The notes: generated by a model not told the origin, from the sequence alone. Shown: positions 8,599 through 54,668, counted from the first letter of the stretch. The stretch: 64,000 nucleotides of DNA from Candidatus Babelota bacterium (GCA_016191325.1 JACPOV010000008.1:910351-974350), one strand, 5' to 3'. A program made the numbers and translations.

Positions 8599-8608
8599 GT
8601 TTAACCTG

Positions 8609-8636: not shown

Positions 8637-8706
8637 TACCAGTACAAAAGCGCATTTCAATAAGATATTGCAAATAAGCGTTTTGAAAATTGAAAAACAA
8701 GTTTGA

Positions 8707-8783
<77 letters not shown>

Positions 8784-13905: not shown

Positions 13906-14107
13906 GTTGCTACAATCATTCTATTGGGAAACAGCCGCTTGTTTAAATGCCCTTGGGCAACTCTCACGCAATTATTGTTTTCAATTGTGTTCATACTCTA
14001 CAATGAAGATAAAAGGGATACGGACAACACCAATATTACAAGCGGTATTTGCGCTGAATGAGTATACGGTGTTTTGGGTAAAATACAAATAAGGGGGAGT
14101 GAGTGTA

Positions 14108-16465
14108 ATGAAAACATTGTCATCTAAAAATATTAAAGAAACCATTCCTGATATACTCCCAGTCATCCCCACAATGGACGTCGTTGTTTTTCCGCACATG
14201 ATCGTTCCATTGTTGGTGCTTGATGAACGGATTATTAAAGGTGTACAAGAAGCTGTTGAAGGTTCAAAGCTTGTTATGCTTTTAGCTTCAAAAAAACAAA
14301 TTGATAACCACGAAACCGCTATAGGAACCCAAGATCTTTTCTGCATCGGTACCGTCGCTTCAATTATGCGTCTCGTTAAAATTCCTGAAGGCGGCATTAA
14401 AGTTTTAGTTCAGGGTCTGCACAAGGCAACTGCAAGTGAAATAATAACCGATAATTCTATTTTATCGGCACGCGTTCAAGTTTTAAATCATGAAGATATG
14501 CCTGAAAGCGCAGAGGTTGTCGCGCAAATTAAAAATATTAAAGAATTAACAGAACGCATGGATGCCGCAGGCCAAACATTTAGCCCCGATTTTCACACCA
14601 TCCTTTCAAAAATGCAGGATCCGCAAAAAATTGCCGATTTTATTCTTTCTCATTTAAGTTTATCGGTCGTCGACGCGCAAGGCCTTCTTGAAAAACCGAC
14701 ATTACGAGAATTCCTTGAAGTAATTTATCTGCTCTTAAGCCGCGAACTTGAAGTTGCGGAAGTACAAGAACGGGTGAAAAACCGCGCGCGCGAATCTATG
14801 AACAAGTCGCAAAAAGAGTTTTACTTGCGCGAACAATTAAAAGCGATTAAAAAAGAACTCGGCGAAGATGATGTTGAAGATGTTGAAGAAATGCGCACAA
14901 AAATTGAAACGCTCGCGCTTTCTGAAGAAGCACGGGTTGAAGTTAATCGTCAATTAAATCGTCTTGAGCGAACCGCTGCCGATTCTATGGAAGCATCGGT
15001 AACCCGCACCTATCTTGATTGGATGCTTTCAATGCCATGGGGTTCTGAAACTTCCGATAATCTTGATATTAAGCACGCGCGAGAAATTCTTGATCAAGAT
15101 CATCATGGCCTTAAAGAGATTAAAGAACGTATTTTAGATTTCATTTCGATCCGCAAACTTAAACAAGATTCGCACACACCGATCCTGTGCTTTTTTGGCC
15201 CCCCAGGAACAGGCAAAACTTCACTTGGGCAATCGATCGCTAAATGTTTAGGAAGAGAATGTTTCCGCGTTTCTCTTGGCGGTGTAAAAGATGAAGCAGA
15301 AATCCGTGGCCATCGCCGCACCTACGTTGGTGCAATGCCCGGCCGCATAATTCAAGGTTTCCGCAAAGTAAAATCGCTCAACCCGGTTATTGTTATCGAC
15401 GAGCTTGATAAGATCGGTGCAGATTTCCGTGGTGATCCTTCAGCGGCGTTACTTGAAGTGCTCGATCCGCAACAAAATAAAACGTTCTACGATAACTATT
15501 TAGGCGTTCCGTTCGATTTATCTAAAGTCATTTTTATTGCTACCGCCAACTCGCTGGAAACAATCTCAGAACCATTGCGCGACCGGATGGAAATTATTCA
15601 ACTTTCTGGCTACACGCTCGATGAAAAACTGCATATTAGTAACCTGCATCTGATTAGAAAAGCGATTAAAGATGCTGGCATGGAAGATCATAATTTAAGT
15701 TTCCACAACGATGTGCTTAAAGATCTCGTGCTTAACTACACGCGAGAATCTGGTGTTCGCCAACTTGAGCGTTTAATCAGAAAACTCTGCTCAAAAGCTG
15801 CACGATGCTATGTGGAAGAAAATCGCACCATTAGTTTTGCTCCTGAAAATATTGAGCTTTACTTGGGGCCGCGCCGCTTCCTTGAAGATGATGTTAATAA
15901 GGAAAATCATGTGGGCGTAACCAACGGCCTTGCATGGACTTCTTATGGTGGCGAAATGATTCGCATCGAAGCGGTTGCAATGCCCGGAAAAGGACGCTTG
16001 ATTTTAACGGGGCAACTTGGCAACGTGATGAAAGAATCTGCTCAAGCGGCGATGAGTTATGCGCGTGCACATTCAAAAGAGTTCAACATTAATAGCAAGA
16101 TGTTTACACACTACGATCTGCATATTCACGTTCCTGCTGGCGCAATTCCTAAAGATGGCCCGTCCGCGGGTATCGCGATGCTCACGTCGATTCTTTCGGC
16201 GCTCACCTTGCGCCCAATTAATGCACAATTTGCAATGACGGGAGAACTAAATCTTCATGGCGATGTGATGCCAATTGGCGGCGTTAAAGAAAAAATCTTG
16301 ACCGCAAAACGTAATCGCGTTCCGCATGTGATTTTACCGCAGAAAAACAAATGCGATTTAGTTGGCCAAGAAGATATTGTAAAAGATATCAACGTCATTT
16401 GGGTGACGCACGCAAATGAAGTGTTAAGCCACGTACTCATGCCAGAAACGAAAGAAAAACATTGA
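14108..16465 (+). CDS. lon: ATP-dependent Lon protease
   Basis: Walker A GPPGTGKTSLGQSIA, RRTYVGAMPGRIIQ, catalytic-Ser motif PKDGPSAGIAMLTSILSAL. The track starts at GTG 14099. The ATG at 14108 sits 8 nt after GGGGGAG. Confidence 0.95.
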   Translation: MKTLSSKNIKETIPDILPVIPTMDVVVFPHMIVPLLVLDERIIKGVQEAVEGSKLVMLLASKKQIDNHETAIGTQDLFCIGTVASIMRLVKIPEGGIKVLVQGLHKATASEIITDNSILSARVQVLNHEDMPESAEVVAQIKNIKELTERMDAAGQTFSPDFHTILSKMQDPQKIADFILSHLSLSVVDAQGLLEKPTLREFLEVIYLLLSRELEVAEVQERVKNRARESMNKSQKEFYLREQLKAIKKELGEDDVEDVEEMRTKIETLALSEEARVEVNRQLNRLERTAADSMEASVTRTYLDWMLSMPWGSETSDNLDIKHAREILDQDHHGLKEIKERILDFISIRKLKQDSHTPILCFFGPPGTGKTSLGQSIAKCLGRECFRVSLGGVKDEAEIRGHRRTYVGAMPGRIIQGFRKVKSLNPVIVIDELDKIGADFRGDPSAALLEVLDPQQNKTFYDNYLGVPFDLSKVIFIATANSLETISEPLRDRMEIIQLSGYTLDEKLHISNLHLIRKAIKDAGMEDHNLSFHNDVLKDLVLNYTRESGVRQLERLIRKLCSKAARCYVEENRTISFAPENIELYLGPRRFLEDDVNKENHVGVTNGLAWTSYGGEMIRIEAVAMPGKGRLILTGQLGNVMKESAQAAMSYARAHSKEFNINSKMFTHYDLHIHVPAGAIPKDGPSAGIAMLTSILSALTLRPINAQFAMTGELNLHGDVMPIGGVKEKILTAKRNRVPHVILPQKNKCDLVGQEDIVKDINVIWVTHANEVLSHVLMPETKEKH

Positions 16466-16472
16466 AAACTAT

Positions 16473-16588
16473 CCCGACCCTTCGATACAAACGCTGTCGC
16501 ATTTACTCAGGGCGAGCGGGATTTATGTCTTCCGCTCGTGGTGAGTGTTTTGCAAACCTTAGTGAGCAAAATGTATCGAACCATAGCG
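16473..16588. repeat. Nested-palindromic intergenic repeat element, copy A
   Basis: Left arm CCCTTCGATACAAACGCTGTCGCATTTACTCAGGGCGAGCGGG (16478-16520), 10-nt spacer, right arm TCCGCTCGTGGTGAGTGTTTTGCAAACCTTAGTGAGCAAAATGTATCGAACC (16531-16582). The arms are imperfect reverse complements. Both recur at 26.7 kb, and a variant at 28.5 kb. Confidence 0.8.
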
Positions 16589-16598
16589 GAGACTAAAA

Positions 16599-17666
16599 AT
16601 GAAAGTATTAACTATTGGTGGCGCCACGCAAGATATCTATATTGTGCCCAAGCAGCTTGAAACACTCAATCTAAAAGGGACTTCGTATCTTGCGCTGGAA
16701 GTTGATACAAAAATAGAACTAGAAACAATACTCTACTCTACCGGCGGAGGAGCTACAAACTCCGCCGTTTCTTTTTCTCGACTCGGATTTCAAACATTTA
16801 TTAACTGCCTGCTAGGCAAAGATCTTGCCGCGCACGCAGTTATTCAAAAACTTGAACAAGAAAACGTAAACACGAATTATATTCATACTACCGACGAATC
16901 ACAAACAGGCAGATCGTTCATTATTCCGTCCGCGGGCGGAAAGCGAACTATTTTATCATTTCGCGGTGCAAACACGCATTTGCATCGGGAGCATATGCCG
17001 CTTTCAATGCTCAAACAGTTTGATTTGATTTATATAACTTCACTCAGCGATGCAGCAGCTCCTCTCTTATTGCCAATTGCGCTCCAAGCGCGTGAGCTTG
17101 GCGTAAAAATTGCGACAAATCCTGGCGGCAGCCAATTGCATGCAGGAATCGGCGCCCAAATTCTTTTTCAATCGCTTCACGCGATCGATATTTTAATTTT
17201 AAATGCACAAGAAGCTGAACTTTTTATGGGAACGATTTCTAAAGAACATTTAAAAGCCGGTGCGCCGATTAGCCAAAAAACAAATAATTTACCATCGCTA
17301 CTGCATGCCACTTCTTGTTTTAATCTCCTGGATTATTGTGCCACGATCATCGCCCAGGGCCCCAAAATTGTTGTTGTTACTAATGGCGCTGAAGGTGTGT
17401 ACGTCGCGACTCAAAATGAAATTCTTTTTCATCCTGCTTTGAAAATAGATGTGATCAATACCGTGGGTGCCGGCGATTCATTTGGTTCGTGCTTTGTCGC
17501 TTCAATCGTTCAAGGAGAATCGATCGAGCAAGCGTTAATAAATGGGATGATCAATAGCGCAAGCGTGCTCACGCATCACGATGCAAAAGAAGGATTATTG
17601 ACCCAGCAGGAACTACAAAAAAAAGCTACGACATCTGCCGTAGATGTAAAAAATTGTACATGGTAG
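16599..17666 (+). CDS. PfkB-family carbohydrate kinase (ribokinase-like)
   Basis: GGGATNSAVSFSRLG near the N-terminus and the C-terminal VINTVGAGDSFGSCFVASIVQG PfkB signature. Confidence 0.85.
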   Translation: MKVLTIGGATQDIYIVPKQLETLNLKGTSYLALEVDTKIELETILYSTGGGATNSAVSFSRLGFQTFINCLLGKDLAAHAVIQKLEQENVNTNYIHTTDESQTGRSFIIPSAGGKRTILSFRGANTHLHREHMPLSMLKQFDLIYITSLSDAAAPLLLPIALQARELGVKIATNPGGSQLHAGIGAQILFQSLHAIDILILNAQEAELFMGTISKEHLKAGAPISQKTNNLPSLLHATSCFNLLDYCATIIAQGPKIVVVTNGAEGVYVATQNEILFHPALKIDVINTVGAGDSFGSCFVASIVQGESIEQALINGMINSASVLTHHDAKEGLLTQQELQKKATTSAVDVKNCTW

Positions 17667-17675
17667 CTTTAATTT

Positions 17676-19772
17676 TTAAAATATTATTCCCATTTTGTTT
17701 ATCAAACGCTGTTGCAAAGGATGCGGCAAGGTGCCAAACAGGCTTTTAAGATCACTTGGCAATTCCACCGTCTTCTTAATTTTACCTAAATGAAGAATAA
17801 CTCTTACAAGTAATGCTTGTTCCAAAGTCAAACGAGCTACATAAGGGGTGACATCATCCCATATAATTACTGACTTACTGTTCATAAGAAAAAACGCGAG
17901 TACATTTTCACTCAAGGCAAACTGCATAATGTTATCATCAAAACCTGTTACGATCGGATAAGGTGAAGATAATGCAAGTTCCGGTATCCAAAGGGCTATT
18001 CCGTTAGAAGCAGAACTGTCTTTAAAAGAATACGCAAGCATAGTACCAGCACCATTAAAAACAAAGGAATTAGCAACCAAGGATCCCTTAATCTCCTGGT
18101 CATATACAGTTACCGTCTTCTGAAGTTTATGATCAGCAGCGTTTAGTATTCCTATGTGGACGTTATCCAATCCGACCGCAATTTCTTCCTTTCGAGGATT
18201 AAATACTGATTGGTACACTTTTTTCGGATAAGTACTCACCGTATCTTTATCCAAATCCCATAGAGTGAGAGTCAAATTGCTTATTCTTATCGCTAATTGT
18301 GTACCATGACTATTAAAAGAAAGAGAAACAATACATTGTGTAAGAGCTGTAAACTCGTTCAGCTTTTTTCCACTCATTGTGTCTACTGCTATAATATCAT
18401 TATGGATGCTCTCATAGGCCAATCGACGACCATCAGCACTCATCGTCACGAGGCGATTATACAATTTTCCTGCTGGATCAACTATTGTTTGAATGATTTT
18501 GCCTGTATTCCAATCAAGGATAACAATCTCAGATCCATTCCATTCATCAGCAGCTAGAACCGATCCACCAGAGATCAAAGATTTAAGTGATGTAAAATGA
18601 GGAATTTCAATTACTCTTACTTGTTTCCCTGTTTGCACATCAAAGATAGCAATACTATTACTCGCCATAGCAACAGCAATTTGCGTCGCATCACTATTAA
18701 AAGCTATCGCTCGTATATCAGTACGAATGCTCCCTAATGCTATTTTACCTTTGGTTTTCCAATCCTCTGGAGCAAAGGTAAGCGTTAGTTTTTGAGCCCA
18801 GCCAAAGAGTGCTGATTTATCTGCAAGCATGTTTGCAATGATTTTTTCCTGCAATGTTAACTGCAAATCTGGCACAATTTCATCAACTATCTCAAACAAT
18901 AAAGTTGGATTCTTAGCAACTTGTGTTAAAAAAGCAGGAGTAGCCACTTTATGCGCTAGCGCGCTTTCAACAAGATCAAGTACGGTTGGCATCGCCAAGT
19001 AATTTGCTACTGATAAGAGCTCGATAAGCTGTTTTCGCTCATAAGAAGAGAGATCTTCTGCTAACTTTTCTTTAAGGAGATTAGTTTTTTTGGCAAGGAT
19101 AAAAAGAAGGTTCCAGCCTATGCCGGTTACGTTGGGCAACGACATTTGTGTATCAGCAGGAAGCTCCTTAGGATCTTTATACCCCAAGAATTCTGATAAA
19201 TTTTTTAGTGTCTCCGAATTTTCAATGATGTTTATCGTTATAGCTCGCGCTTCACCTTCAGCAGGTATTGTGAGCGTATAATTAACAAGTGCTTTTTTTT
19301 CAAAGCTACTTGAAGGGATAGAGCAAACGTCGTGCTGCGATGATTTTTTTTGTGCAGACTTAATAGCAGGGGCAACGCCAGTAAGCGCAAATTGCTGATA
19401 TATCTTTTGCAGTACTGGTATATCTAAAAATCGTATTACTTTTCCTAGTTGTGTAAATGCGGTAGTGCCATGAAATTTTCTAAAATTGTTGAAGGTGATA
19501 ACCAGCTCGTCAGGCCTCGAAAGTTTAAGCAATACGCTCAGAATAAAATTAAATGATGTTTCATCCACATCAGGTAGACCAAATTCATTTGCAAACCTCT
19601 CATCAGCGATGATATCTTTAATAGTAGGCGATATTGCTGCTAACTCTTGCAATTGTTCTGATGAAATCCTAGCAGATTTATCATTTTTAAGATGCACCGT
19701 AATAGATGAAGGCAAACTTGCCTGCAACAAAGTGACAAAAAATAATAAATAAATTACTATCAACTTTTTCAT
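17676..19772 (-). CDS. Skp1/BTB-POZ-like (x2) + WD40-like beta-propeller protein, family member E1
   Basis: The preferred ATG at 19772 lies 4 nt after AAGGAG (the track uses GTG 19790). Leader MKKLIVIYLLFFVTLLQA. ITVHLKNDKSARISSEQLQELAAISPTIKDIIADE...GLPDVDETSFNFILSVL and LIELLSVANYLAMPTVLDLVESALAHKV resemble Skp1 ([13 protein letters not shown]...[10 protein letters not shown]...PLPNV; [28 protein letters not shown]). Propeller-type blades include IAVAMASNSIAIFDVQTGKQV and LTLTLWDLDKD. Confidence 0.7.
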   Translation of the reverse strand: MKKLIVIYLLFFVTLLQASLPSSITVHLKNDKSARISSEQLQELAAISPTIKDIIADERFANEFGLPDVDETSFNFILSVLLKLSRPDELVITFNNFRKFHGTTAFTQLGKVIRFLDIPVLQKIYQQFALTGVAPAIKSAQKKSSQHDVCSIPSSSFEKKALVNYTLTIPAEGEARAITINIIENSETLKNLSEFLGYKDPKELPADTQMSLPNVTGIGWNLLFILAKKTNLLKEKLAEDLSSYERKQLIELLSVANYLAMPTVLDLVESALAHKVATPAFLTQVAKNPTLLFEIVDEIVPDLQLTLQEKIIANMLADKSALFGWAQKLTLTFAPEDWKTKGKIALGSIRTDIRAIAFNSDATQIAVAMASNSIAIFDVQTGKQVRVIEIPHFTSLKSLISGGSVLAADEWNGSEIVILDWNTGKIIQTIVDPAGKLYNRLVTMSADGRRLAYESIHNDIIAVDTMSGKKLNEFTALTQCIVSLSFNSHGTQLAIRISNLTLTLWDLDKDTVSTYPKKVYQSVFNPRKEEIAVGLDNVHIGILNAADHKLQKTVTVYDQEIKGSLVANSFVFNGAGTMLAYSFKDSSASNGIALWIPELALSSPYPIVTGFDDNIMQFALSENVLAFFLMNSKSVIIWDDVTPYVARLTLEQALLVRVILHLGKIKKTVELPSDLKSLFGTLPHPLQQRLINKMGIIF

Positions 19773-19843
19773 AAGGCTCCTTTTGCTCACATTTTTTAAT
19801 CACTGTAGCAAAAAGGCTCAGAGACCCGCATTAATTTTGTAAT

Positions 19844-20434
19844 CTATTTTAAATCGGCAAGTAGCTTTTCTATTGCTTTATCGCGAAGACAAACATAGGA
19901 AATGTTTTCTTCATCTAGCTCAGCCAACGTTTTTCCATATTCAGGCAAGAAGAAAATTGTTTTATAGGGAAGCCCTGGAATTAATTTCCCCTTCTGCTCA
20001 CGTGAAATAAAACCATCCAGTGTTCCGCGATAATAATGAATTGTGCCATCTAAGTGAGCGACAGCAAGTGCCGCTACAAACGATGCCGTTCTTTTTCCTT
20101 CAGGGATATCTTTCATCAGCTCAAGAGCTTTGGCGATTCTTTGTTCATCCGTAGCATTCTCGCCGGCAAACCGCTTGGAGTAAATACCGGGTGCACCGTG
20201 CAATGCATCAATGCAAAGCCCACTATCGTCTGCTAGCGTCATCATATGCGCGCGTTCCGCAAAAAAACGTGCCTTGATTCCTGCATTTTCCTCAAAGGTA
20301 AGTCCAATTTCTTCAACATCATCAGTTATTCCAACCTCTTTTAATGAAGTTGTAGGTAAAAACTTTGATATTCTAGAAGAAAGTTCATGAAATTTTCCTG
20401 GATTATTCGTTGCAATAAGAAGCATCTTGCTCAT
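19844..20434 (-). CDS. rdgB: Non-canonical purine NTP pyrophosphatase (RdgB/HAM1 family)
   Basis: LLIATNNPGKFHEL at the N-terminus, ENAGIKARFFA, FFLPEYGKTLAEL. The start is uncertain (GTG 20449, ATG 20434 or ATG 20425). Confidence 0.85.
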   Translation of the reverse strand: MSKMLLIATNNPGKFHELSSRISKFLPTTSLKEVGITDDVEEIGLTFEENAGIKARFFAERAHMMTLADDSGLCIDALHGAPGIYSKRFAGENATDEQRIAKALELMKDIPEGKRTASFVAALAVAHLDGTIHYYRGTLDGFISREQKGKLIPGLPYKTIFFLPEYGKTLAELDEENISYVCLRDKAIEKLLADLK

Positions 20435-20529
20435 AGTAACTGCCTGCACACATTCTTTCTAAGAAGGTTTTCTACAAGCTTATCTTCTAAAAATGATCTA
20501 AGCAATTCACCAGAATATTATTTATAATC

Positions 20530-22632
20530 CTAGAATTTAATTTTTAGTTTTTCAGTCGATTCTTTTTTCAATTCTTCAGGCAGCGCTTGGAAATATGGCA
20601 TCATGTCTTGAGGCAGTTTAAATTCAGGTTGTTTGTTGATTCTGTGCAACTGATAGATCATTAAAAGAGTAAATAGTTGCGTTAGCGCTAATTTATTAAC
20701 GATAGGACGTAATGCATTCCTGGATAAGTTAACTCTATTTTTTATAGCTGCAAGAAATAACCTATCACTTGAATTAACCGCAGCAGCTGTCAATTCCTGG
20801 TTCACTTTAATACTTGTGAGCACTTCACCTGTTTTCAACCCAACAATTTTAATCGCATTATTTTTATTTTGCATAATAATTTGTTCGTTTATTGAATTAA
20901 ATCGCAGGATCCTATCTGTAGCCGAAAATGATCTAAGCTGATTACCCGATTTAATATCTAAAGTCACAAATAAATTTCGAGTTTTTGTTATTAAATTGCC
21001 ATCTTTATCAAACCATATTCGTTCAATTCCATTCGCGACTGAGATGACTCTTTGTTTTGGCGAAGATGAAATATCCCAAAGCTGGATCTCTAAAGTGGTC
21101 GGATCGGCAATAGCCAATGTTTTTTTTGCGTCATCAAATGCCATAGTACAAATTAAAGAAAATGTTCCGTCAAGCGGAATAATACGAATATTTTTCTGGT
21201 TTGCTAGATTAATAATCTGAACTCGTGTATCTGAAGTACGAATTGCTGCCATAGTGCCATCATTACTCAAAATCCCAGGGACTAAACCCAAATCAAAAAT
21301 CGAGGCAGCCATTCCTAATTGTTCCAAGGGGATTGCTGTCATATCTTTTTTTGCACTCAGATCACAAAAACGGAGGGCTTGCTCTCCCAAAAACATACAC
21401 ACGGTGCCTTTTTGACTTATTCTCAATCCTTTTCCAGCCAACTCGTAAGTAAGACGGTAAACTTCTTTTGTTATCCAAAGAATTTGAAGAGGAGAATCTG
21501 GACTCTTTAAAAAAATTATTGGCGTGTTGGTATCTTCATTAACTATTAGATCTGAAATTATCTGATTCGTCGCAATATAATTTGAGAGGTGTAATTCTTC
21601 AGTTTTCCATCCATACGAATTGAGAAAATCCGTTTGTGAAATAGTATTACGAACAATTGAAGCCTCCGCGGTGCTGGGCAATGACGAAACCCATTTTAAG
21701 AAGGTTGCGACATCAGCTGCTTCAGTCGCTAAGAGTTTTTTAATGAGAGCATTTGCCATTTTTTTTTCGACAACATTGCTCAATATTCTCATATCCAAAT
21801 AATCGGCAAGCTGCAGAAATTTGAGCAATTGCTCAGAGTTGAAGCTAATGTTGTTGAATAAATGCGTCACATTTTCTTCATTATTTAAATCGCGCACGGC
21901 TATTGCAAGCTTTTTGAGAATCTCCCACTCTTCTTGGCTGATATTACCAATCACAATTTTTTTTCCTGGAGCAAGTTTTTCAGGAGATACTTCATAAATA
22001 TCTTGAATTAACGTTTTTAAAACGGTCGATGCATTAAAAATCCTAATGATCGTTTGAGCTTCTGTTTGCTCTTTTGGAAATATAACTGCGAACAGCTCGC
22101 GTTCCTCCGTTTTTAGTCTTTTAGTTTCCTCTGTTGATTCAATTTTGCGTTTCCCCTGCTGCAAAGGAGTTACAAGCTGTTCTTGTTGAGCAAGCTCTTC
22201 TCGGTTCTTAAGAATTTTTGAGTACATATTTTGAAATGAAGGAGGCAATTGAATATCAAGATAATTCAGCATATCTAGAACTGACTCAAATCCTCCCAGC
22301 TTTTTTGTTTGTTCTAAGCGAAGTTTTTCGTCAAATTGTTGCAAATCGTTCAAAACCGCTTCGGGCAATGATTTTAGAAAGACAAAAGACTTTTCATCAA
22401 TATCTGGCAGGGCAATTTCTTGTAATTGGCCTTGTTGTAAAATATCCTCTATCAATTCCTTAAGTGTTTGAGATTTAGTCGCAAGAAATAGGAGCTTATT
22501 TTTAGGAATCGTTATCTCCACATCGCCTTTAAGTTTGACCAAAACCTGATCAGGCGGGCAGCTGCCCATCATGAATAAAGCGGATGCAATGATAATTGCA
22601 CGTTGAGCTACTTGTTTTATTATATCTTCCAT
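20530..22632 (-). CDS. Skp1/BTB-POZ-like (x2) + WD40-like propeller protein, family member E2
   Basis: VLVKLKGDVEITIPKNKLLFLATKSQTLKELIEDIL...IALPDIDEKSFVFLKSL, then LLKFLQLADYLDMRILSNVVEKKMANAL. Blades include TLEIQLWDISSSPKQ. The C-terminal tail is shared with E1, E3 and E4. Confidence 0.7.
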   Translation of the reverse strand: MEDIIKQVAQRAIIIASALFMMGSCPPDQVLVKLKGDVEITIPKNKLLFLATKSQTLKELIEDILQQGQLQEIALPDIDEKSFVFLKSLPEAVLNDLQQFDEKLRLEQTKKLGGFESVLDMLNYLDIQLPPSFQNMYSKILKNREELAQQEQLVTPLQQGKRKIESTEETKRLKTEERELFAVIFPKEQTEAQTIIRIFNASTVLKTLIQDIYEVSPEKLAPGKKIVIGNISQEEWEILKKLAIAVRDLNNEENVTHLFNNISFNSEQLLKFLQLADYLDMRILSNVVEKKMANALIKKLLATEAADVATFLKWVSSLPSTAEASIVRNTISQTDFLNSYGWKTEELHLSNYIATNQIISDLIVNEDTNTPIIFLKSPDSPLQILWITKEVYRLTYELAGKGLRISQKGTVCMFLGEQALRFCDLSAKKDMTAIPLEQLGMAASIFDLGLVPGILSNDGTMAAIRTSDTRVQIINLANQKNIRIIPLDGTFSLICTMAFDDAKKTLAIADPTTLEIQLWDISSSPKQRVISVANGIERIWFDKDGNLITKTRNLFVTLDIKSGNQLRSFSATDRILRFNSINEQIIMQNKNNAIKIVGLKTGEVLTSIKVNQELTAAAVNSSDRLFLAAIKNRVNLSRNALRPIVNKLALTQLFTLLMIYQLHRINKQPEFKLPQDMMPYFQALPEELKKESTEKLKIKF

Positions 22633-22665
22633 TTTTTACCTATTGCTTAATTAACGCGCCCGCGC

Positions 22666-24786
22666 CTATTTATTTAATTTTAGATCCGACATAAATTTAG
22701 GATAATACTGCTCAACAAGAATCTTAATATCCATTGGTAAGCTAGTTATCTTTTTTTCAAAATCTTGGCTTAAAATCACTTTTTCTTTTTGCGGACCAGA
22801 AAGCGCATGGTATTTCTTTATTAACGCAAGTGTAAAAACTTTATCGATTGAAAGCTTATCGAGTTGGTAATCAATGTTTTTCCATACAAGTACGCCTTGC
22901 CGTGTCGCGATTGCTATGCGAGACCCATCACCATTAAACGAGATTAAATCATGTCGAGCCATTTCGCCTCTCACCAGAGACCAAACTTCCTGAGGGAGAA
23001 TAATAGTTTGATAGTGTTGAGGATTCGAAACTTGCCAAATTCGTATCTCTTTCCAGTAGTCTGCTGCAATTTTTGCACCATTGGGACTGAAAATAGGATT
23101 CGTTATCCAACCAGGCGCTTCATTGTATTCGAAAGACATGTCCTCAATTATTTTTTCTTTTTCGATATCCCACAGTCTCATCTTTCCTTCGTATGACTTA
23201 GCAAGAAGCTGCTTTTCACTTAGGAACGCAAGGCTTTCAATCGGCTTCATATCTTCAGTCAGCAGTCGCTTGATTATTTCTTTTGTGTTGAGATTTATAA
23301 AGAAAATTCGTCCATCCGCCAGGCCCAATGCAATCGTTTGATCGTTTGGCGAAAAAGCCATGCTATAAATACTCGAATGTGATAAGTCCCATGTATCAAA
23401 AACAGAATCATAGTTATTTGTAGCGAGATCATAGAGGGTGAAAAGTCTACCATTGGCAATATATCCAAGAAATTTATTATTATGGCTAAAGGCACTTGCA
23501 GAATTTGAGGCTTGCTTGACCGTTATTTGGTTTCCGTTTTTTATGTCCATCAAATAAAGGCCTTGAGAAAAGCCTATCCGAGCTTTAGTAGAAATATAAT
23601 TCCCGTTTGGACTAAATTGCATCGCATCTGGTGAAAATTCAAGACTTGCAAGGAAACTTATTTTTTTCGTAGTAGTATCTATGAGTATTATTCCTTTTTT
23701 CTCTTTGTGGGTATCGTTAATACCCGCGGCAACAATTAAACCATCAGGCCTCATCGCTATCCCGCTCAATTCTCGATCGGTGCCAATTTTCAATGGCCCA
23801 CTCCAATGGAATTTTCCCAACAGCTCGCTTTTTAGAATTCTTCGCTTTAGTATTTCGCGAACTTCTGGCGTTATTTGATTAAAAAATTTATCGTAGGCGC
23901 CTAAATGCGCAAGCGCATCAAAAACTATTTCTTCGCTTTCCAATCGTGCTAAAAGTAGATCAATAGCGTTATCCAACAATCGAGCCATTTCTAAATAGTC
24001 TGCAATCAAGAGAATATCTTTTAATCTATCTGCGCTGTATTGCTTGAGAGCATTATGCACTTGATTATCATTAGAAAAATCTTCAATATTATCAGCCAAC
24101 TCTAGGAGTAAATTCCAGTGATCGATCGAAATACTGGTAATAAGAAGGTCTGCTCCCGGCGCAATCTCATCTATGTTCTCAAGCTTACGCGCATCTCTAA
24201 CATAATCTGTAAGAACGCGTGAAGCTTTTACTATCTTTAATACCCGTTCTCTGCTTTTACCTCCTGTCGGAATCGAGATCGTTAATTGCTTACCTTCTAT
24301 TCTTAATTTCTTTGGCTCGGTTATCTCAGATTCTGGCTCTTTTCTTTTGATAGTGATCGGGCAAGCTTGCTTGAGCTGCGGCAAACTATCATACGCGTTA
24401 AGTAACTCTTTAATATCAAAAAATTCAACAACTCTCATCAAATTCGAAAATGAATTGGCGCCGCGTGTCTGCAGATAATTTTTTAATTTGATTATTAATT
24501 GGCCAGGCGATTGAATAATCTTAAGAGCCTCGACGATAAATTTGAGCGAGTCTTTGTCGACCTGTAAAAATGGCAGCTCTTTAACAGCGTTTGCACTGGC
24601 TTCGACTTCTCCAGCAGCATTGTTGATAGTCGGAGAATATTCTCTCAGTTGAATGAATGTCGACTGCGGCACAATAACCGTTTGATCATCTTTTAGATTA
24701 AATTGAACATCGCCAAAACGTGCAGTATAGGCACCCTGACTTATCATTACTGGTAAAAATAAAAGCACCACAGCTATTTTTTTCAT
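22666..24786 (-). CDS. Skp1/BTB-POZ-like (x2) + seven-blade WD40-like propeller protein, family member E3
   Basis: The preferred ATG at 24786 follows GGAGGG (the track extends to 24846). Leader MKKIAVVLLFLPVMISQGA. LKDILLIADYLEMARLLDNAIDLLLARL. Blades include IALGLADGRIFFINLNTKE, GKMRLWDIEKEK and EIRIWQVSNPQ. Confidence 0.7.
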   Translation of the reverse strand: MKKIAVVLLFLPVMISQGAYTARFGDVQFNLKDDQTVIVPQSTFIQLREYSPTINNAAGEVEASANAVKELPFLQVDKDSLKFIVEALKIIQSPGQLIIKLKNYLQTRGANSFSNLMRVVEFFDIKELLNAYDSLPQLKQACPITIKRKEPESEITEPKKLRIEGKQLTISIPTGGKSRERVLKIVKASRVLTDYVRDARKLENIDEIAPGADLLITSISIDHWNLLLELADNIEDFSNDNQVHNALKQYSADRLKDILLIADYLEMARLLDNAIDLLLARLESEEIVFDALAHLGAYDKFFNQITPEVREILKRRILKSELLGKFHWSGPLKIGTDRELSGIAMRPDGLIVAAGINDTHKEKKGIILIDTTTKKISFLASLEFSPDAMQFSPNGNYISTKARIGFSQGLYLMDIKNGNQITVKQASNSASAFSHNNKFLGYIANGRLFTLYDLATNNYDSVFDTWDLSHSSIYSMAFSPNDQTIALGLADGRIFFINLNTKEIIKRLLTEDMKPIESLAFLSEKQLLAKSYEGKMRLWDIEKEKIIEDMSFEYNEAPGWITNPIFSPNGAKIAADYWKEIRIWQVSNPQHYQTIILPQEVWSLVRGEMARHDLISFNGDGSRIAIATRQGVLVWKNIDYQLDKLSIDKVFTLALIKKYHALSGPQKEKVILSQDFEKKITSLPMDIKILVEQYYPKFMSDLKLNK

Positions 24787-24924
24787 AGACCCTCCATTTA
24801 AGATTGAAATTAGTCTAAAAGATTTAGCTCTTGCGGAGCAACACATTGTAGCCGATCAAAATAAAAGTTTTATCGGGGTATCTTTACAACTCAAATGCAT
24901 TCAACTAGCCTGATACCTATATAA

Positions 24925-26406
<1,482 letters not shown>

Positions 26407-26646
26407 ATGGATTTCACGATTATTAGTCCCCGCGAAAAAAAAGAGCTAGCAATATCTTGGCTTGAAGTAAACACGCCTAATGGAAATTTTATCATTCAGC
26501 GCGGCCACGCACCGATGATCGTTCTTGTCTCGCCGAACCAACCGCTTACTGTTTGCTTGAAGAACGGTAAGCAGGAGACGTTTTGCACACCAGGTGGCAT
26601 TTTAGAAATCACCAGAACAGCCGCATTTTTATTATTAAACGAATAA
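26407..26646 (+). CDS. atpC: F1 ATP synthase epsilon subunit, N-terminal beta-sandwich domain only (79 aa)
   Basis: Starts immediately after the atpD stop. GNFIIQRGHAPMIVLVSPNQPLTV...GGILEI matches the epsilon N-terminal domain pattern. There is no C-terminal helical hairpin. Confidence 0.75.
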   Translation: MDFTIISPREKKELAISWLEVNTPNGNFIIQRGHAPMIVLVSPNQPLTVCLKNGKQETFCTPGGILEITRTAAFLLLNE

Positions 26647-26650
26647 TGAT

Positions 26651-26842
26651 CCCTCGTCCGCCATGGTTCGATACTTTTTGCTCATAAAATTCGCAAAACA
26701 CTCACCACGAGCGGAGTCGGCACTCACAATAGAAGGCCCCAAAAAAAACGTTAATAAATAAGAAAAAATTAATTCAAAAAATCTATCCACCCCGCTCGCC
26801 CTGAGTGATTTCGAACAGAGTGAGAAATTGTATCGAAGGGTT
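26651..26842. repeat. Nested-palindromic intergenic repeat element, copy B (inverted relative to copy A, longer spacer)
   Basis: 26665-26715 (GGTTCGATACTTTTTGCTCATAAAATTCGCAAAACACTCACCACGAGCGGA) is the reverse complement of copy A's right arm, with the last 23 nt identical. 26790-26840 (CCCCGCTCGCCCTGAGTGATTTCGAACAGAGTGAGAAATTGTATCGAAGGG) is the reverse complement of copy A's left arm, sharing blocks of 16 and 12 nt. The spacer is about 74 nt. Confidence 0.8.
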
Positions 26843-26849
26843 AAGTTTT

Positions 26850-28457
26850 ATGAAAAATAAATTGGGCTATATTATCTCAGGATCGTTAACCGAAGGATTC
26901 GTGATGCGGATCACGAACGCAGCGCATCTTGAAGAGATTAAAGCTGGAAAATTTGTGTGCATTGCGGGCGATCATCACACTTTTTTTTCACTAATCACCG
27001 ATCTTTCACTCGCCGTTACGCATCCAGATATCTTGCTTTTTCCACCAAGCGAAAAAGAAAAATTACTCGCCAAAATTCTTGCAAAAAAAGACATTTATGC
27101 GACCGCATCAGTTAAACCAATGCTTATGATGACCAAAGAACAGCGCGTGATTCCCGTAAAAACTATTCCACCACATTTTGCGCCGATTTTTGAAGCAGAT
27201 AAAAAAGATATCGCGCTCATATTTGGCGATGAAAACGATACTAAAACTCCCTATTTTAACATTGGCTGCCCACTTGATATGGATACGCCGGTTTGCATCA
27301 ATCTTGAACGGCTTACCGAACGCAGTAACGGTATTTTTGGAAAAACCGGAACGGGAAAAACATTCTTAACACGGCTCGTGCTTGCTGGATTAGTAAAACA
27401 AGACCAAGCGGTAAATTTAATTTTTGATATGCATAGCGAATACGGCCTGCAAGCGCGAAAAGAAGGATCGCATTCATTTGTTAAAGGTTTAAAAACGCTC
27501 TTTCCTTCAAAAGTTGCACTTTTTTCTCTCGATCCACAATCAACGCGCAGACGCGGTGCCACCCCTGATGTAGAAATCAATTTGCCGTATAGCGCCGTGC
27601 ATGTTGAAGATATTTTAGCGCTGCAAGAAGAACTTAATTTGCATAGTACCGCAGTTGAAGCAGCGCATTTAATTGCCGCACGGCACAAACACGAATGGCT
27701 CGGAGTTCTTTTAGCGCAAGGCGATCGCTTAAAAGAATTTGCAGCAGAAATTGGCGGCCATCCTGAATCTATTGCTGCACTTTATAGAAAATTAAAACGC
27801 ATTGAGCGATTTCCGTTTTTCCGGCACGCTGCGGGTGGCAATTTTCGGGAAGGTTCATCAATTGATCAGCTTATTGAATATTTAAGCAAGGGCATTTCGG
27901 TCATCATCGAATTTGGTAATTTCACTTCAAGCCTTTGCTATTTGCTGCTTGCAAACATGATCACGCGCCGTATTCATACCGAATATATTGAAAAAACAGA
28001 AAAATTTTTAGCAAGTCAGCGGGCTGAAGATGAACCGAAAAAATTAATGATTACTATCGAAGAAGCGCATAAATTTTTGAATCCGCACGCGGCACGCCAA
28101 ACTATTTTTGGCACGATCGCGCGGGAAATGCGTAAATATTACGTTTCTCTTTTAGTTGTTGATCAGCGGCCATCAGGCATCGATCCAGAAATTATTTCTC
28201 AAATTGGCACCAAAATTATTGCACAACTCAATGATGATAAAGATATCCAAGCAGTGCTCACTGGTATTTCAAATGCGCATCATTTGCGCGGCATTTTAGC
28301 ATCGTTGGATACAAAAAAACAGGCGATGATTGTTGGCCATGCAGTCGCAATGCCAGTTGTCGTACAAACCCGCGAATATGATGAAGTATTTTATCGCGCA
28401 ATGGCACCACAAGTTTCCGCAAAACAAATTGACGTGATGATTCAGGAACTATTTTAG
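26850..28457 (+). CDS. HerA-like / DUF87-type P-loop ATPase (COG0433-like)
   Basis: Walker A GIFGKTGTGKTFLTRLVLAGL, Walker B-like LMITIEEAHKFL, LLVVDQRPSGIDPEIISQIGTKIIAQLNDDKD. The track start at 26805 reads through repeat copy B, so I prefer the ATG at 26850 (MKNKLGYIISGSL). Confidence 0.8.
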   Translation: MKNKLGYIISGSLTEGFVMRITNAAHLEEIKAGKFVCIAGDHHTFFSLITDLSLAVTHPDILLFPPSEKEKLLAKILAKKDIYATASVKPMLMMTKEQRVIPVKTIPPHFAPIFEADKKDIALIFGDENDTKTPYFNIGCPLDMDTPVCINLERLTERSNGIFGKTGTGKTFLTRLVLAGLVKQDQAVNLIFDMHSEYGLQARKEGSHSFVKGLKTLFPSKVALFSLDPQSTRRRGATPDVEINLPYSAVHVEDILALQEELNLHSTAVEAAHLIAARHKHEWLGVLLAQGDRLKEFAAEIGGHPESIAALYRKLKRIERFPFFRHAAGGNFREGSSIDQLIEYLSKGISVIIEFGNFTSSLCYLLLANMITRRIHTEYIEKTEKFLASQRAEDEPKKLMITIEEAHKFLNPHAARQTIFGTIAREMRKYYVSLLVVDQRPSGIDPEIISQIGTKIIAQLNDDKDIQAVLTGISNAHHLRGILASLDTKKQAMIVGHAVAMPVVVQTREYDEVFYRAMAPQVSAKQIDVMIQELF

Positions 28458-28477
28458 GATTTTGCCATTTTTTTCGC

Positions 28478-28612
28478 ACATCCCTCGATACAAACGCAAA
28501 GCGTTCACTCGGGACGAGCGCTTCAAAAAATGTTATTTACTGGAAAACTCTTAATATTTTGTTAGCTGCGCTCGTCTCGAGTGCGCACGAAGTGCGTGTA
28601 TCGAGAGATGGC
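28478..28612. repeat. Nested-palindromic intergenic repeat element, copy C (variant, same orientation as A)
   Basis: Left arm CCCTCGATACAAACGCAAAGCGTTCACTCGGGACGAGCGC (28482-28521), right arm GCGCTCGTCTCGAGTGCGCACGAAGTGCGTGTATCGAGAG (28568-28607). It shares TCGATACAAACGC and GTATCGA(A/G) with copies A and B. Each arm contains its own small hairpin. Confidence 0.7.
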
Positions 28613-28633
28613 GCAAATTCAAAGGTTTAAATA

Positions 28634-28662
28634 TAAAAAGGCCCAGAAAGTCTGAGCCTTTT
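28634..28662. terminator. Bidirectional hairpin terminator candidate downstream of pal
   Basis: AAAAA, then AGGCCCAGA, AAG loop, TCTGAGCCT (one mismatch), then TTTT. A-run and T-run flank the stem. Confidence 0.5.
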
Positions 28663-28684
28663 TATGTAAGATTTTTAAACTTAT

Positions 28685-29293
28685 TTATGCATTAATCGCA
28701 TAAATCTCTACACGACGGTTTGGCGCTTGGCCTTCGAAAGTATTTTCAAAAGCGGCAAGTTCTTCGTTGCCTACGCCAAATACTTTAACGTTCCCTTTAG
28801 CAGAATCTCCAACTAGGGTTTGAGCCAAATCACTCGCACGTTGATTTGAAAGCGCTAAGTTATAATCTTTGGTACCGTGCCAGGTGCATGAATGCCCTTT
28901 AACGACAACCTTTTTCCCTTCATCTACCCATGTATCAACTTGTTTTTTTACGGACGCAAGTTTTGCTTTTTGGTCGTCCCGGACTTTTGGGCTATCGTAG
29001 TCAAAATAAACAACGAGTACATCTTCATCATTCTGATCGAGCTCGCCAAGCGCTAAAACATCGTTCTTTGCGCCTTTTTGTGCATTTTCCTCATCTAAAA
29101 CCAATGTTTCTACATCTTCAAATGCACCCAAATCCTCATCAAAGAAACTCACTTTAGGCTGGCCCTTTGACGGGACCGGCATATCAACTGCAGCTGCTAA
29201 ATTTGCAGGATGTTCCCGCTTTACCTTCTTTTTTCCGCACCCTGATAGGACAATTATGAATAGAGTAACGAAAACTAATAATTTTTTTTGCAT
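28685..29293 (-). CDS. pal: Peptidoglycan-associated lipoprotein (OmpA-family C-terminal domain)
   Basis: Lipobox in MQKKLLVFVTLFIIVLSGC. OmpA-like domain VYFDYDSPKV...GHSCTWHGTKDYNLALSNQRASDLAQTLV...NRRVEIY. The start is taken at ATG 29293 rather than the track's 29329. Confidence 0.88.
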   Translation of the reverse strand: MQKKLLVFVTLFIIVLSGCGKKKVKREHPANLAAAVDMPVPSKGQPKVSFFDEDLGAFEDVETLVLDEENAQKGAKNDVLALGELDQNDEDVLVVYFDYDSPKVRDDQKAKLASVKKQVDTWVDEGKKVVVKGHSCTWHGTKDYNLALSNQRASDLAQTLVGDSAKGNVKVFGVGNEELAAFENTFEGQAPNRRVEIYAINA

Positions 29294-29477
29294 AGGCTCT
29301 CCACCTCCAAAATGGGTTATGTTTCTCAAGCAACGGTGGGCAATTTACCATATTTTTCTCCTCTTTTCTATTAGTTTTAGCGAGTTTTTCTACTATTTGG
29401 CGATCGGATACGGTATACTTACGGTTATAAGGTATTTTACAACACGTTTTTCCAGCACCTTAGGGTGGGGACGATTC

Positions 29478-31009: not shown

Positions 31010-32383
31010 ATGGGGAATCTAAAAAAAATAATTGGGTGTTTATTTTTTTGTGTGATTGCACTTCCCAGTTATTCCCAAATGCATAAAGAAAAAAAGCCCG
31101 AGATGCGAAGAACCAATAGCTGTCGCGATTTAAAACAACTTCTGGAAGAAGATCCCTTTAAAACCAAAACCTTTGAACAATCTCCACAGCCTTTGGTTAA
31201 CAACAATAACAACAATTCAAAAGATGAAGTTACTGAAGTAAACCTCGCTTCAATGCCTGAAATAATGGAGAATTCTTTTGCGAGAATGATGAAAAAATAC
31301 GATCCATTCCGCAGAACATCAAGTGTGCCAAAAATCGCAATTGAACCAATCGAATCGTATACCTCCAAAAGGCAACCACTCACACGCAGTTTTTCTGAAC
31401 TTTCTTCTAAGGCGTACGCGATTACATATCCTGGTCCTGGGGTTTTTGCAGTTCACGATATGGAAGAGGATAAAGAGCTTCTCACTTTGAACGGTTCACC
31501 GTGGAAAACGCATACCACCTTTGCCAGCCCAACAAGCATTGCTTATATTACAAAGCCGGAAAGCGCTGTGTGCGTTGTAGAAGTGCCCACAGGAAAACAT
31601 GTAAAATGCACAGATTTTAAAGTAATTGATTTCAACAGTTCTACTTTTGAAATCCCACAAGGGGTGTCTAGCCCAGATCTTATTTCTCAAGGGAAAAAAC
31701 CTTATCCAGTTACGGTGAAAGGGCTCGATAATAATAAACTCTTAACCCTTTACCGATCAACTTCCACAACTATAAACAAACAAAAAGGTGGCATTCTTTA
31801 TTTGTGGGAGGTCGACCGAGGAACGTTCACTGAGCTCGACCCAAAAGCTGTTAATATTGATTCTGCGCTTCTTGCTGCCGGTAAATTAATCGATACAAAA
31901 GGGAATGAGATACAAATCTTTGAAAATCCTGGAAAGCAGACAGAATCGATAAAGACAATAGCAAAACATACCAAACCGATAGCGAGCATTTCATTATCAT
32001 CATTATCACAAAATGAACTTATACTCGCTTCAGGCTCTGCCGATAAAACCGTTAGGCTGTGGGATTTGGGAATGTATGGGAGCGAAAGCGCAACTTTTGA
32101 ATTTCCAGAAAAAATAAACGCTGTCGCTTTTCACCCAGAAATCGACTATCTTTTGGCCGTTGCAGCATTAGGAACTATTCATTTTGTCGACACCCGAACA
32201 AAAGAAAGTATTGGTACGTCGCCCCTGGGCGCAATGTGTAAAAATAATATAGTACGAACGCTTAAATGGAATCAAACGTCTCTCTACGTAGAAACCGGAT
32301 TACGCGTGTGGTCGAAATTAACCGGTCTTGATAAATTCTTACAGAGCGGTAAAAAAGTCGACACAACTGCACAATCTCAATAG
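31010..32383 (+). CDS. Leader-bearing WD40-repeat protein with Asn-rich low-complexity linker
   Basis: Leader MGNLKKIIGCLFFCVIALPSYSQ. Canonical WD40 repeat ELILASGSADKTVRLWDL, then INAVAFHPEIDYLLAVAALGTIHFVDTRTKE. GGGAG lies upstream of the ATG. Confidence 0.75.
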   Translation: MGNLKKIIGCLFFCVIALPSYSQMHKEKKPEMRRTNSCRDLKQLLEEDPFKTKTFEQSPQPLVNNNNNNSKDEVTEVNLASMPEIMENSFARMMKKYDPFRRTSSVPKIAIEPIESYTSKRQPLTRSFSELSSKAYAITYPGPGVFAVHDMEEDKELLTLNGSPWKTHTTFASPTSIAYITKPESAVCVVEVPTGKHVKCTDFKVIDFNSSTFEIPQGVSSPDLISQGKKPYPVTVKGLDNNKLLTLYRSTSTTINKQKGGILYLWEVDRGTFTELDPKAVNIDSALLAAGKLIDTKGNEIQIFENPGKQTESIKTIAKHTKPIASISLSSLSQNELILASGSADKTVRLWDLGMYGSESATFEFPEKINAVAFHPEIDYLLAVAALGTIHFVDTRTKESIGTSPLGAMCKNNIVRTLKWNQTSLYVETGLRVWSKLTGLDKFLQSGKKVDTTAQSQ

Positions 32384-34646: not shown

Positions 34647-35606
34647 ATGGCGCTGTATATTATTTTAAGTGCTTTGGCATCGATTTTATGCAGCGAGGCC
34701 AGCGGAATGGAATTAGCCGAATTCAAGAATGAAAAAAAAGATTATTCTTTCCCAGAGCTGTTAGCTATCAAATTAGAAAACTATCCCGTTTGCCTTGCAA
34801 TCAGCGACGATAATAAATATATCGCGTTTGTTACTCGCTACCAAACGGGATCTCTGTTTAGCTTAAATGAAGATGCATCAAAAGTTGTATCAACGACGAG
34901 CATTAACGTCCCTGATTGTTTTTGCAAAACTCTCTATTTTGACGAACAATCGAACCTGAGTTTTTGGAATCCTTCTCAGCCATATCCGCTAAGAAATTTG
35001 ATATATAATGAAGGATGCGATGAACCGCACGCATTCTCCTACAAGAAATCATTGATAGCTCAATCGAGCCATGATATGCGAATCCGCATTTTTTGTTTAG
35101 ATCGCCCCGAGAATAAGAAAAAACATAAAACGTCGCTTCATCATACCTCCGGCTCTGTTACATCCCTTGCATTTAATCAAGAAGGATCGCTATTGGCATC
35201 AGGGGCACACGGTGGCGAACTTTTTTTATGGGATACTCATAGTTGGGAAAAAAAATCCACCAAACTTTCGGGGCACGTACTTGCATTATCGTTCAGCAAT
35301 GATGATCAAAGATTGGCAGCGGGAAGTACACACGGAGAAGTGCTCCTGTTCGATTCTACTAACCTCGAAATAATAAAAAGAATTGATTACGCTAACCCGA
35401 AAGGAATCCATCACGCAGTTTTTAACGCAGATGATTCACTACTTATCAGCGGATTAGATGATGCACTTTGTATTTCAGAATTGAAACCAACATTTAAACC
35501 GCAATCCCCCGCCCTTGAAAACTTAAAAATTGAAAATAAGGGCAATAAATCGCTCCCAGAGTTTTGGGAAAAACTCATAAAAAAAATCGGCTTTCTTAAA
35601 GGCTAA
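34647..35606 (+). CDS. Leader-bearing WD40-repeat protein (leader ...G-M-E)
   Basis: MALYIILSALASILCSEASG|MELAEFK. WD40 repeats GSVTSLAFNQEGSLLASGAHGGELFLWDTHSWE and VLALSFSNDDQRLAAGSTHGEVLLFDSTNLE. It starts 3 nt after the gatB stop. Confidence 0.75.
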   Translation: MALYIILSALASILCSEASGMELAEFKNEKKDYSFPELLAIKLENYPVCLAISDDNKYIAFVTRYQTGSLFSLNEDASKVVSTTSINVPDCFCKTLYFDEQSNLSFWNPSQPYPLRNLIYNEGCDEPHAFSYKKSLIAQSSHDMRIRIFCLDRPENKKKHKTSLHHTSGSVTSLAFNQEGSLLASGAHGGELFLWDTHSWEKKSTKLSGHVLALSFSNDDQRLAAGSTHGEVLLFDSTNLEIIKRIDYANPKGIHHAVFNADDSLLISGLDDALCISELKPTFKPQSPALENLKIENKGNKSLPEFWEKLIKKIGFLKG

Positions 35607-54635: not shown

Positions 54636-54668
54636 ATCAGAATCCCTAAACACCAAAATTTTAAATTA

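Follow-up and report, generated by a model that had tools for sequence, protein, structure and literature searches.

Introduction

What are the palindromic repeats that stand between housekeeping genes in a Candidatus Babelota bacterium, what exactly is repeated in them, and how did they spread? The question was raised by a preliminary description, made from sequence alone, of a 64,000-nucleotide (nt) stretch of this genome (GCA_016191325.1, JACPOV010000008.1:910351-974350; hereafter the window), in which three intergenic sites, here called A, B and C, each carry a two-armed, nested-palindromic element. Below, we describe the unit from which these elements are built, its occurrence in other bacteria, its presence or absence at particular loci, and the readings that could account for it. 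The element is a strand-specific, structure-constrained, dispersed and insertion-polymorphic repeat, and its six copies in the window are probably a small selfish, transposase-less repeat spread as a folded single strand, akin to repetitive extragenic palindromic (REP) sequences, bacterial interspersed mosaic elements (BIMEs) and Rickettsia palindromic elements (RPEs).

Results

The repeating unit is a single arm

The pattern TCGATAC-N(10-40)-CTCNNNNCGAGCG has six exact matches in the window, at 16482-16518(+), 16533-16579(-), 26668-26713(+), 26793-26836(-), 28485-28520(+) and 28569-28604(-), and not one of 100 shuffles contained any match. A covariance model, R1, likewise finds exactly six units in the 64-kb window, with the six arms scoring 50-64 bits (E 1e-12 to 1e-15) and the next best hit only 9 bits. 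Two inverted arms lie at each of the sites 16466-16595, 26652-26852 and 28469-28620, where chance would predict none, and hence both pattern and model bear out the two-armed elements at the three places originally given.

Alignment of 84 arms from low-GC loci defined the unit. Read on the complementary strand, which we call strand F, it runs 5'-(P1a)-CCGYUC-(R YNNY)-GAGU-(P2 hairpin)-GUAUCGA-(RNNR U)-(P1a')-3' and forms, on this strand only, a hairpin of 45-75 nt. Its layers, from outermost to innermost, are a variable stem P1a, a near-invariant CCGYUC bulge, a 5-bp covarying stem R-YNNY/RNNR-U, an invariant asymmetric loop 5'-GAGU/5'-GUAUCGA and a freely variable terminal hairpin, P2, whose loops are often C(GNA)G triloops. 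The four nt before TCGATAC pair with the RNNR of ACTC-RNNR-CGAGCG in 78-79 of 80 units, and do so with at least eight pair types (ccct/AGGG, tggt/ACCA, tcct/AGGA, tccc/GGGA, tgct/AGCA, tgcc/GGCA, cccc/GGGG and tctc/GAGA); this stem is P1b below. Among 79 Dependentiae units P1b is 98.4% and P2 90.3% paired (P2 84-90% overall), compared to only ~40-55% for controls in which the pairing was slid; 11 of 11 pairs are changed on both sides, and none of 500 shuffles reaches the observed covariation score. In high-GC phyla P1b is 98.2% paired. RNAalifold recovers the same helices unaided, with compensatory changes in 10 of its 13 pairs. The covariance model proposed as a check could thus be built, as R1, with stems that covary, and the inner mini-hairpins first noticed in each arm are real and vary between copies through compensatory changes.

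The loop behaves in the opposite way to the stems. Positions G18 A19 G20 U21 / G54 U55 A56 U57 C58 G59 A60, together with C8 G9 U11 C12 of the bulge, are unchanged wherever present in 69 model-found sequences (45 low-GC, 24 high-GC) that lay outside the seed-pattern selection. To judge by these bases, the loop could form tandem G·A pairs. Strand F can be taken as the folding strand because wobble pairs occur on it at positions 22-53 (G·U in 49 of 79 units, otherwise G-C, U-A or A-U) and 13-65 (as inferred from column frequencies, mostly G·U or A-U in genomes of low GC content and mostly G-C in those of high GC content), and because P2 is more stable on it in 66 units, compared to 7 for the other strand.

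The repeating unit is therefore a single arm, a self-contained hairpin that measures 55-70 bases in the three elements, and the 'nested palindrome' is a dimer of such units. The two arms of an element had been taken for imperfect reverse complements of one another, a likeness due only to an invariant core that both carry in opposite orientations; the P1b and P2 stems are not the same in the two arms, and each arm therefore folds independently. That the conserved entity is the arm rather than a pair of ends follows from the occurrence of arms singly, in both dimer polarities and nested in one another.

The three dimers of the window

Dimer A is made of unit A1 (16466..16525, folding on the - strand; P1b CCCU/AGGG, P2 AAAUGCGACAGCGUUU; R1 50.1 bits, E 7.7e-12, besides the exact pattern and the fold), which begins 1 nt past the lon stop codon, and unit A2 (16526..16595, folding on the + strand; P1b UGGU/ACCA; 62.2 bits, E 3.5e-15). 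A 12-nt spacer, gatttatgtctt (16520..16531), separates their facing 5' ends, CGAGCGG and CCGCTCG. Dimer B comprises unit B2 (26652..26720, folding on the - strand; P1b UGGU/ACCA; 54.4 bits), which begins 6 nt past the atpC stop codon and is a paralogue of A2, with which it shares the inverted repeats I3 and I5, and unit B1 (26786..26852, folding on the + strand; P1b CCCU/AGGG; 63.6 bits), separated by an A-rich spacer of 77 nt (26715..26791) that includes a partial duplicate of CACTCAC. In dimer C, a 46-nt spacer (28522..28567) lies between unit C1 (28469..28527, folding on the - strand; P1b UCCC/GGGA, P2 GAACGC-UUU-GCGUUU; 56.1 bits) and unit C2 (28562..28620, folding on the + strand; P1b UCUC/GAGA, P2 GCGCAC-GAA-GUGCGU; 56.0 bits). 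All three dimers have their 5' ends facing.

Copies A and B match on opposite strands over 31 nt at 90% and 28 nt at 93% identity, with identical blocks of 23, 16, 14, 12 and 9 nt. This agrees with the view of B as an inverted copy of A and with the 23-, 16- and 12-nt blocks reported for them; the expansion of the spacer from A to B is also real, although its lengths are 12 and 77 nt rather than 10 and about 74. The fold predictions suggested for the three copies were made, and each composite proved more stable than all of its 200 shuffles (z = -3.9, -4.0 and -8.3).

Related debris had also been reported at 43.7 kb. R1 has no match there, even when run unfiltered and with hits accepted up to E 10, and any resemblance is faint and by eye only. 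What the region does contain is a 47-nt direct repeat of 70% identity (43507-43553 and 43653-43699) just past a tmRNA gene (43111-43491, 140 bits), itself ~3.4 kb downstream of smpB (39292-39744); the repeat holds TCGACAAGCT-like strings with a faint likeness to an antisense copy of the mini module described below, which no model supports.

The family spans several phyla

An arm-pattern scan of one genome per species matched at least 120 stretches. Among the matches listed, R1 identifies at least 121 units in 56 loci of Dependentiae/Babeliales type and at least 58-62 units in other phyla; the latter are mostly inverted pairs and not due to chance. Carriers outside Candidatus Dependentiae, to which the bacterium of the window belongs, are Sphingomonadales (including cultured Sphingomonas, Sphingobium and Sphingopyxis), other Alphaproteobacteria, Candidatus Binatia, Undibacterium, Dehalococcoidia and a Myxococcota bin. 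The same invariant core is thus present in several phyla, and the family is not confined to one species, genus or order: the repeat is dispersed, as had been proposed, with copies well beyond the window, so that the condition named at the outset for refuting it fails to do so. Only two syntenic pairs were found among 20 Sphingomonadales loci, and therefore the element is not a conserved gene-linked feature in this order.

Twelve pattern matches in viral contigs were taken as chance, since all score ≤27 bits and have broken stems, and a plasmid BLAST search with a Sphingomonas dimer gave no match. Rfam 15 recognises only tmRNA and a tRNA in the window; relaxing E to 10 brings up nothing at the units, and seven loci from other phyla have no match either. 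The core strings are absent from the supplementary files of a catalogue of GTAG/CGTC REPs (Di Nocera et al., 2013; PMC3733652), and the literature, searched by taxon, by REP and REP-associated tyrosine transposase (RAYT), and by sequence strings, yielded no published description of the family.

Dimers, nested units and mini forms

Among the matches listed, 33 dimers have their 3' ends facing and 22 have their 5' ends facing, as in the window, while five are nested on opposite strands and one is a same-strand tandem. Intergenic units lie in ~29 convergent, ~32 co-directional and ~6 divergent spacers in the same set. Inverted dimers hence dominate, and promoter-bearing divergent spacers are avoided. 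The genes beside the units are unremarkable and varied, with 147 Pfam families represented among 104 open reading frames (ORFs). A 59:18 excess of units co-oriented with the upstream gene was at one point read as a preference for the RNA sense; this was withdrawn once single units were separated from dimers, because the excess is mostly enrichment in convergent spacers. Single intergenic units are sense in 19 cases and antisense in 14, and in co-directional spacers the counts are 6 and 9.

Units nested inside the P2 of another unit occur at loci L020, L031, L066 and L068. An onion-like array was observed in Undibacterium arcticum (L026, 7083-7362), in which a 5' half-unit, GTAGGTCCGTTCGCCCTGA, is present three times in tandem and a 3' half, GTATCGAAGGGAGC, two to three times, amounting to same-strand units within each other's P2.

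There is also a 44-nt 'mini' form without P2, SCGYTCG-YNNY-GAGC-YYG-TCGA-RNNR, which often occurs as inverted pairs (L033 1898-1990, L053 6292-6387, L101 3257-3725 and others). In three of its copies GAGC..GUCGA has become GAAC..GUUGA, a G20-C58 to A-U change, which implies a G20-C58 pair beside the tandem G·A. In sphingomonad units the mini module serves as P2. Sphingomonas faeni provides a further arrangement (L110, 3400-3710): an inverted dimer with two stacked GAGU/GUAUCGA modules per arm lies directly 3' of a gene ending in ...KYDPVVRKHVEFKEAKIK*, which, by likeness to the Escherichia coli sequence, probably encodes ribosomal protein L33.

Presence/absence polymorphism and copies within genes

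Comparison of orthologous spacers, another check suggested at the outset, revealed presence/absence differences. A relative (locus L134) whose HerA is 81% identical has the gene order atpC-herA-ompA-rne, as in the window. Its atpC and herA are 1 nt apart (TAATATG, 519-521), whereas the window has a 202-nt insertion between them (26646-26850), and its 57-nt herA/ompA gap holds only a terminator. Elements B (~202 nt) and C are therefore presence/absence polymorphisms.

On chromosome OY970332, nearly identical copies of a nested two-unit element occur at four loci with unrelated flanks (L020 2336-2455 and 7311-7432, L031 7472-7591, and L106 3263-3331, the last with an additional ~90-nt insertion). 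The element is bounded by an AT-rich, perfect inverted repeat of 12 bp, ATTAATTTTTTA/TAAAAAATTAAT. In Logan, contigs assembled from short reads of the source sample end inside B and C (L001 17930-17975; L136 101-167 and 1800-1823), so the repeats fragment assemblies of this genome.

No unit is in frame inside a gene in the window. In relatives, units lie in frame and on the sense strand inside genes at L043 2530-2600, L054 4119-4189, L066 2784-2879, L100 3496-3557 and L007 724-786, and in all five genes Pfam domains flank the unit on both sides. The intragenic hosts encode a second Ddl copy, a GT4/GT1 glycosyltransferase, a TrmH-family methylase, MiaA and a heparinase-like protein. The units add ~20-26 residues, mostly in interdomain linkers, with peptides such as ...PLVPSVFRSEAEKNVSR...; in the TrmH-family methylase of L043, the encoded insert is of 24-26 residues (for example, ESGIPLVPSVFRSEAEKNVSRDVAAK) and is absent from an 80%-identical homologue and from four others. 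Overall, 11 intragenic units are sense and three antisense.

Flanking genes and local effects

The copies had been placed after the 3' ends of lon, atpC and a HerA-like gene, and Pfam assignments agree. Dimer A occupies the spacer between lon (14099..16465, +; Lon_C, LON_substr_bdg and AAA) and a pfkB-family kinase gene (16599..17666, +; PfkB), and the GCGGAG of the A2 3' foot overlaps the GGAG of pfkB, the likely ribosome-binding site 8 nt before its ATG at 16599. Dimer B lies between atpC (26407..26646, +; F1 epsilon subunit, ATP-synt_DE_N) and the HerA-like ATPase gene (26850..28457, +; DUF87 and HAS barrel), that is, where the two genes nearly abut in L134. Unit B1 ends at the herA ATG at 26850, and its AGGG is the sole Shine-Dalgarno-like sequence before herA. 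As suspected, copy B misleads the ORF call: the N-terminal extension from a GTG at 26805, inside B1, is false, and the true start is the ATG at 26850, given that the NCBI protein of 535 residues is identical and the HAS-barrel domain begins at residue 5.

Dimer C is in the 3' untranslated region (UTR) of herA, which converges with an OmpA-family gene (28685..29329, -; OmpA), and lies ahead of the terminator shared by the two. The latter is a terminator-like hairpin on both strands (28641..28672, AAAAAGGCCCAG-AAAGT-CTGAGCCTTTTTAT), separate from the repeat and, by alignment, conserved in L134, which is without element C. A consensus terminator scan does not call it because of one stem mismatch; nor does the scan call anything at the units, save for one weak site overlapping B2 (26731-26703, -). 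Terminator-like sites are no commoner than in shuffles.

Elsewhere in the window, a tRNA gene (8707-8780) lies in the largest intergenic gap (8598-9339), and many large WD40/beta-propeller proteins are encoded (17676-24846, 31010-32383, 34647-35606 and 53031-54656). With a Pfam cut-off of E 1e-4, about half of the window's ~50 ORFs match no family.

Discussion

A probable selfish repeat, proposed to spread as folded single-stranded DNA

A fitter description of the family is that of a superfamily of complex structure, in the style of REPs and RPEs, that crosses phyla and is absent from Rfam and from one published REP catalogue. For the six window copies we favour, on balance, a selfish transposase-less repeat that spreads as a folded single strand. 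The element would be copied in this form, most likely as single-stranded DNA (ssDNA), by a trans-acting enzyme encoded away from it that would read the invariant loop and the CCGYUC bulge, with the stems needing only to pair. P2 would be a permissive site, and could therefore be absent or replaced by another unit. After insertion the element would be a passive passenger, transcribed with the genes around it into a stable hairpin that lies in a 3' UTR or between two cistrons, and at herA and pfkB it may now supply or overlap the ribosome-binding region. We favour ssDNA over RNA since half of the units are antisense to any transcript, single intergenic units have no sense bias (19 compared to 14), close relatives are without the copies, and the genes for Ddl, MiaA and the TrmH-family methylase tolerate sense-strand copies.

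Several findings weigh against this proposal. The earlier statement that the window has no transposase holds in that none is detectable by domain search of its ORFs. Pfam reveals no transposase among neighbouring ORFs, window ORFs or genes bracketed by units, and with E. coli RayT as tblastn query the best hit in 1.09 Mb of loci plus window has an E of 0.78. Neither duplication of a target site nor a defined cut site was observed at B, C or the four OY970332 copies. The copy number in the source genome is known only as six units per 64 kb, and the presence/absence differences could in principle reflect deletion in L134. G·T is tolerated in DNA as well, and so the wobble pairs do not separate RNA from ssDNA. 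Furthermore, 11 loop bases kept across phyla are more typical of a functional RNA or protein-binding site than of selfish DNA of the ordinary kind.

This last point leads to the reading of the unit as a functional cis-acting RNA module, in which the invariant GAGU/GUAUCGA loop, perhaps with tandem G·A pairs in the manner of a kink-turn (k-turn) or K-loop, would bind a conserved host protein or form a tertiary motif and control mRNA 3'-end stability, processing or translation, dispersal being secondary. It is the main rival, though we hold it to be unlikely. In its favour, stems covary around 11 loop bases and a CCGYUC that do not change across phyla, G·U pairs occur on one strand only, many units lie a median of ~51 nt past a co-oriented stop codon, two window units run up to start codons and into the Shine-Dalgarno region, intragenic units are mostly sense, and by the established rules for k-turns the loop has a suitable layout (helix, then GA opposite a 3-nt bulge with GA, then helix). 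Against it, single intergenic units show no clear sense bias, in co-directional spacers included, and the dominance of inverted dimers leaves half of all units antisense to any transcript. Copies are tolerated in coding regions, close relatives manage without B and C, no Rfam family corresponds, the G20-C58 to A-U change of the mini form speaks for a simple loop with tandem GA rather than for a genuine k-turn, and L7Ae-type proteins are not known to be general in these phyla. Less probable still is that CCGYUC...GAGU/GUAUCGA constitutes a new functional nucleic-acid motif across phyla, either as the binding site, k-turn-like or tandem-GA, of an unlinked but widely conserved host enzyme that copies the hairpin or as a self-processing RNA or ssDNA core by which the element would move with no transposase of its own. 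By hand comparison, hammerhead, twister, pistol and hairpin ribozymes and sarcin-ricin, T-loop and attC motifs do not fit the unit, in agreement with Rfam.

The two roles first suggested for the element, as a repeat like REPs or like MITEs (miniature transposable elements with inverted repeats) and as a terminator, fare differently. The likeness to REPs is borne out by dispersal and inverted dimers, while a MITE of the classical kind, derived by deletion from a DDE-type insertion sequence (IS) and moved as double-stranded DNA (dsDNA) through terminal inverted repeats, is very improbable. The inverted ends of the composites, the perfect 12-bp inverted repeat that bounds one Dependentiae subfamily and the presence/absence polymorphism would all suit it, but a dsDNA transposase would not select covarying stems and strand-specific wobble pairs; arms, besides, occur alone, in both dimer polarities and nested, there is no target-site duplication at B, C or the OY970332 copies, and no related IS or transposase was found in the loci and window. 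We see next to no prospect that the units are nothing more than similar-looking intrinsic terminators or attenuators of the ordinary bidirectional kind, for all that they are stable intergenic hairpins past 3' ends and enriched between convergent genes: their 3' flanks have no U tract, C is upstream of a real terminator that L134 keeps without C, dimers A and B stand between co-directional genes immediately before start codons, units occur in frame inside ORFs, and an invariant 11-base loop is not a feature of terminators.

Implications

If the selfish-repeat proposal is correct, the family adds a REP-like superfamily with a complex two-helix monomer and an invariant loop but no neighbouring transposase, in which one core spans reduced intracellular Dependentiae and free-living high-GC Sphingomonas and Binatia. 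The spread of transposase-less palindromic repeats would also become testable, as the element is present in cultured Sphingomonas and R1 can serve to profile it phylogenetically against gene families. Should the core instead be a new functional motif, this would account for the REP-like families with no transposase that have been noted since 2013. In practice, the units break short-read assemblies of Dependentiae genomes, create false N-terminal extensions (herA) and peptides inside ddl and miaA, and, at atpC-herA, a ribosome-binding site borne by the element can replace translational coupling.

Comparison with known systems

K-turns are built from tandem sheared G·A/A·G pairs and a 3-nt bulge, flanked by canonical (C) and non-canonical (NC) helices. 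The layout of the unit would fit this rule as far as the primary sequence goes, and the mini form resembles a K-loop (GA, loop, GA). However, where a k-turn has C-G next to its bulge the unit would have G·U and U·G, its bulge bases do not vary, and the G20-C58 pairing in the mini form removes the bulge.

The ends of IS200/IS605 elements, REP-RAYT substrates and integron attC sites resemble the unit in that structure is kept over stem sequence and one strand is active. As in sites recognised in ssDNA, the terminal hairpin varies in length. All three features match selection by an enzyme acting on a folded single strand. In contrast to these systems, no HUH/Y1 transposase or integrase was found near the units and no cleavage tetranucleotide or guide pairing was identified; and, unlike integron attC sites, the units have no RYYYAAC/GTTRRRY core sites and form inverted dimers between housekeeping genes rather than same-orientation cassette arrays.

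RPEs are selfish palindromic repeats of intracellular bacteria, found between genes and in frame within them. The present family is like them in being intergenic and also, in relatives, in frame in protein genes, where it adds a short peptide at a permissive site, but is not limited to such hosts, being found in free-living high-GC bacteria as well. RPE-4 and RPE-6 have been equated with CGTC REPs, with 8-9 bp stems starting AT (Di Nocera et al., 2013; PMC3733652); compared with RPEs by description only, our units differ from these two in anatomy.

The closest parallels are with REP/BIME/REPIN sequences of E. coli and Pseudomonas, which are likewise small, multi-copy, mostly extragenic hairpins with G·T pairs in their stems, whose inverted (head-to-head and tail-to-tail) dimers far outnumber head-to-tail ones, which lie in convergent and co-directional spacers, and which have occasional intragenic copies and insert into palindromes. 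Of the GTAG- and CGTC-tagged superfamilies catalogued (Di Nocera et al., 2013; PMC3733652), the latter is similar in that no dedicated transposase has been found adjoining it. The monomer of our family is nevertheless larger than that of REPs (45-75 compared to 20-40 nt) and folds into two helices around a large invariant internal loop; in place of an unpaired GTAG or CGTC tag, its units end in CCGYUC... and ...RNNR-U; and whereas REP sequences are lineage-specific, the core of these units is identical across phyla.

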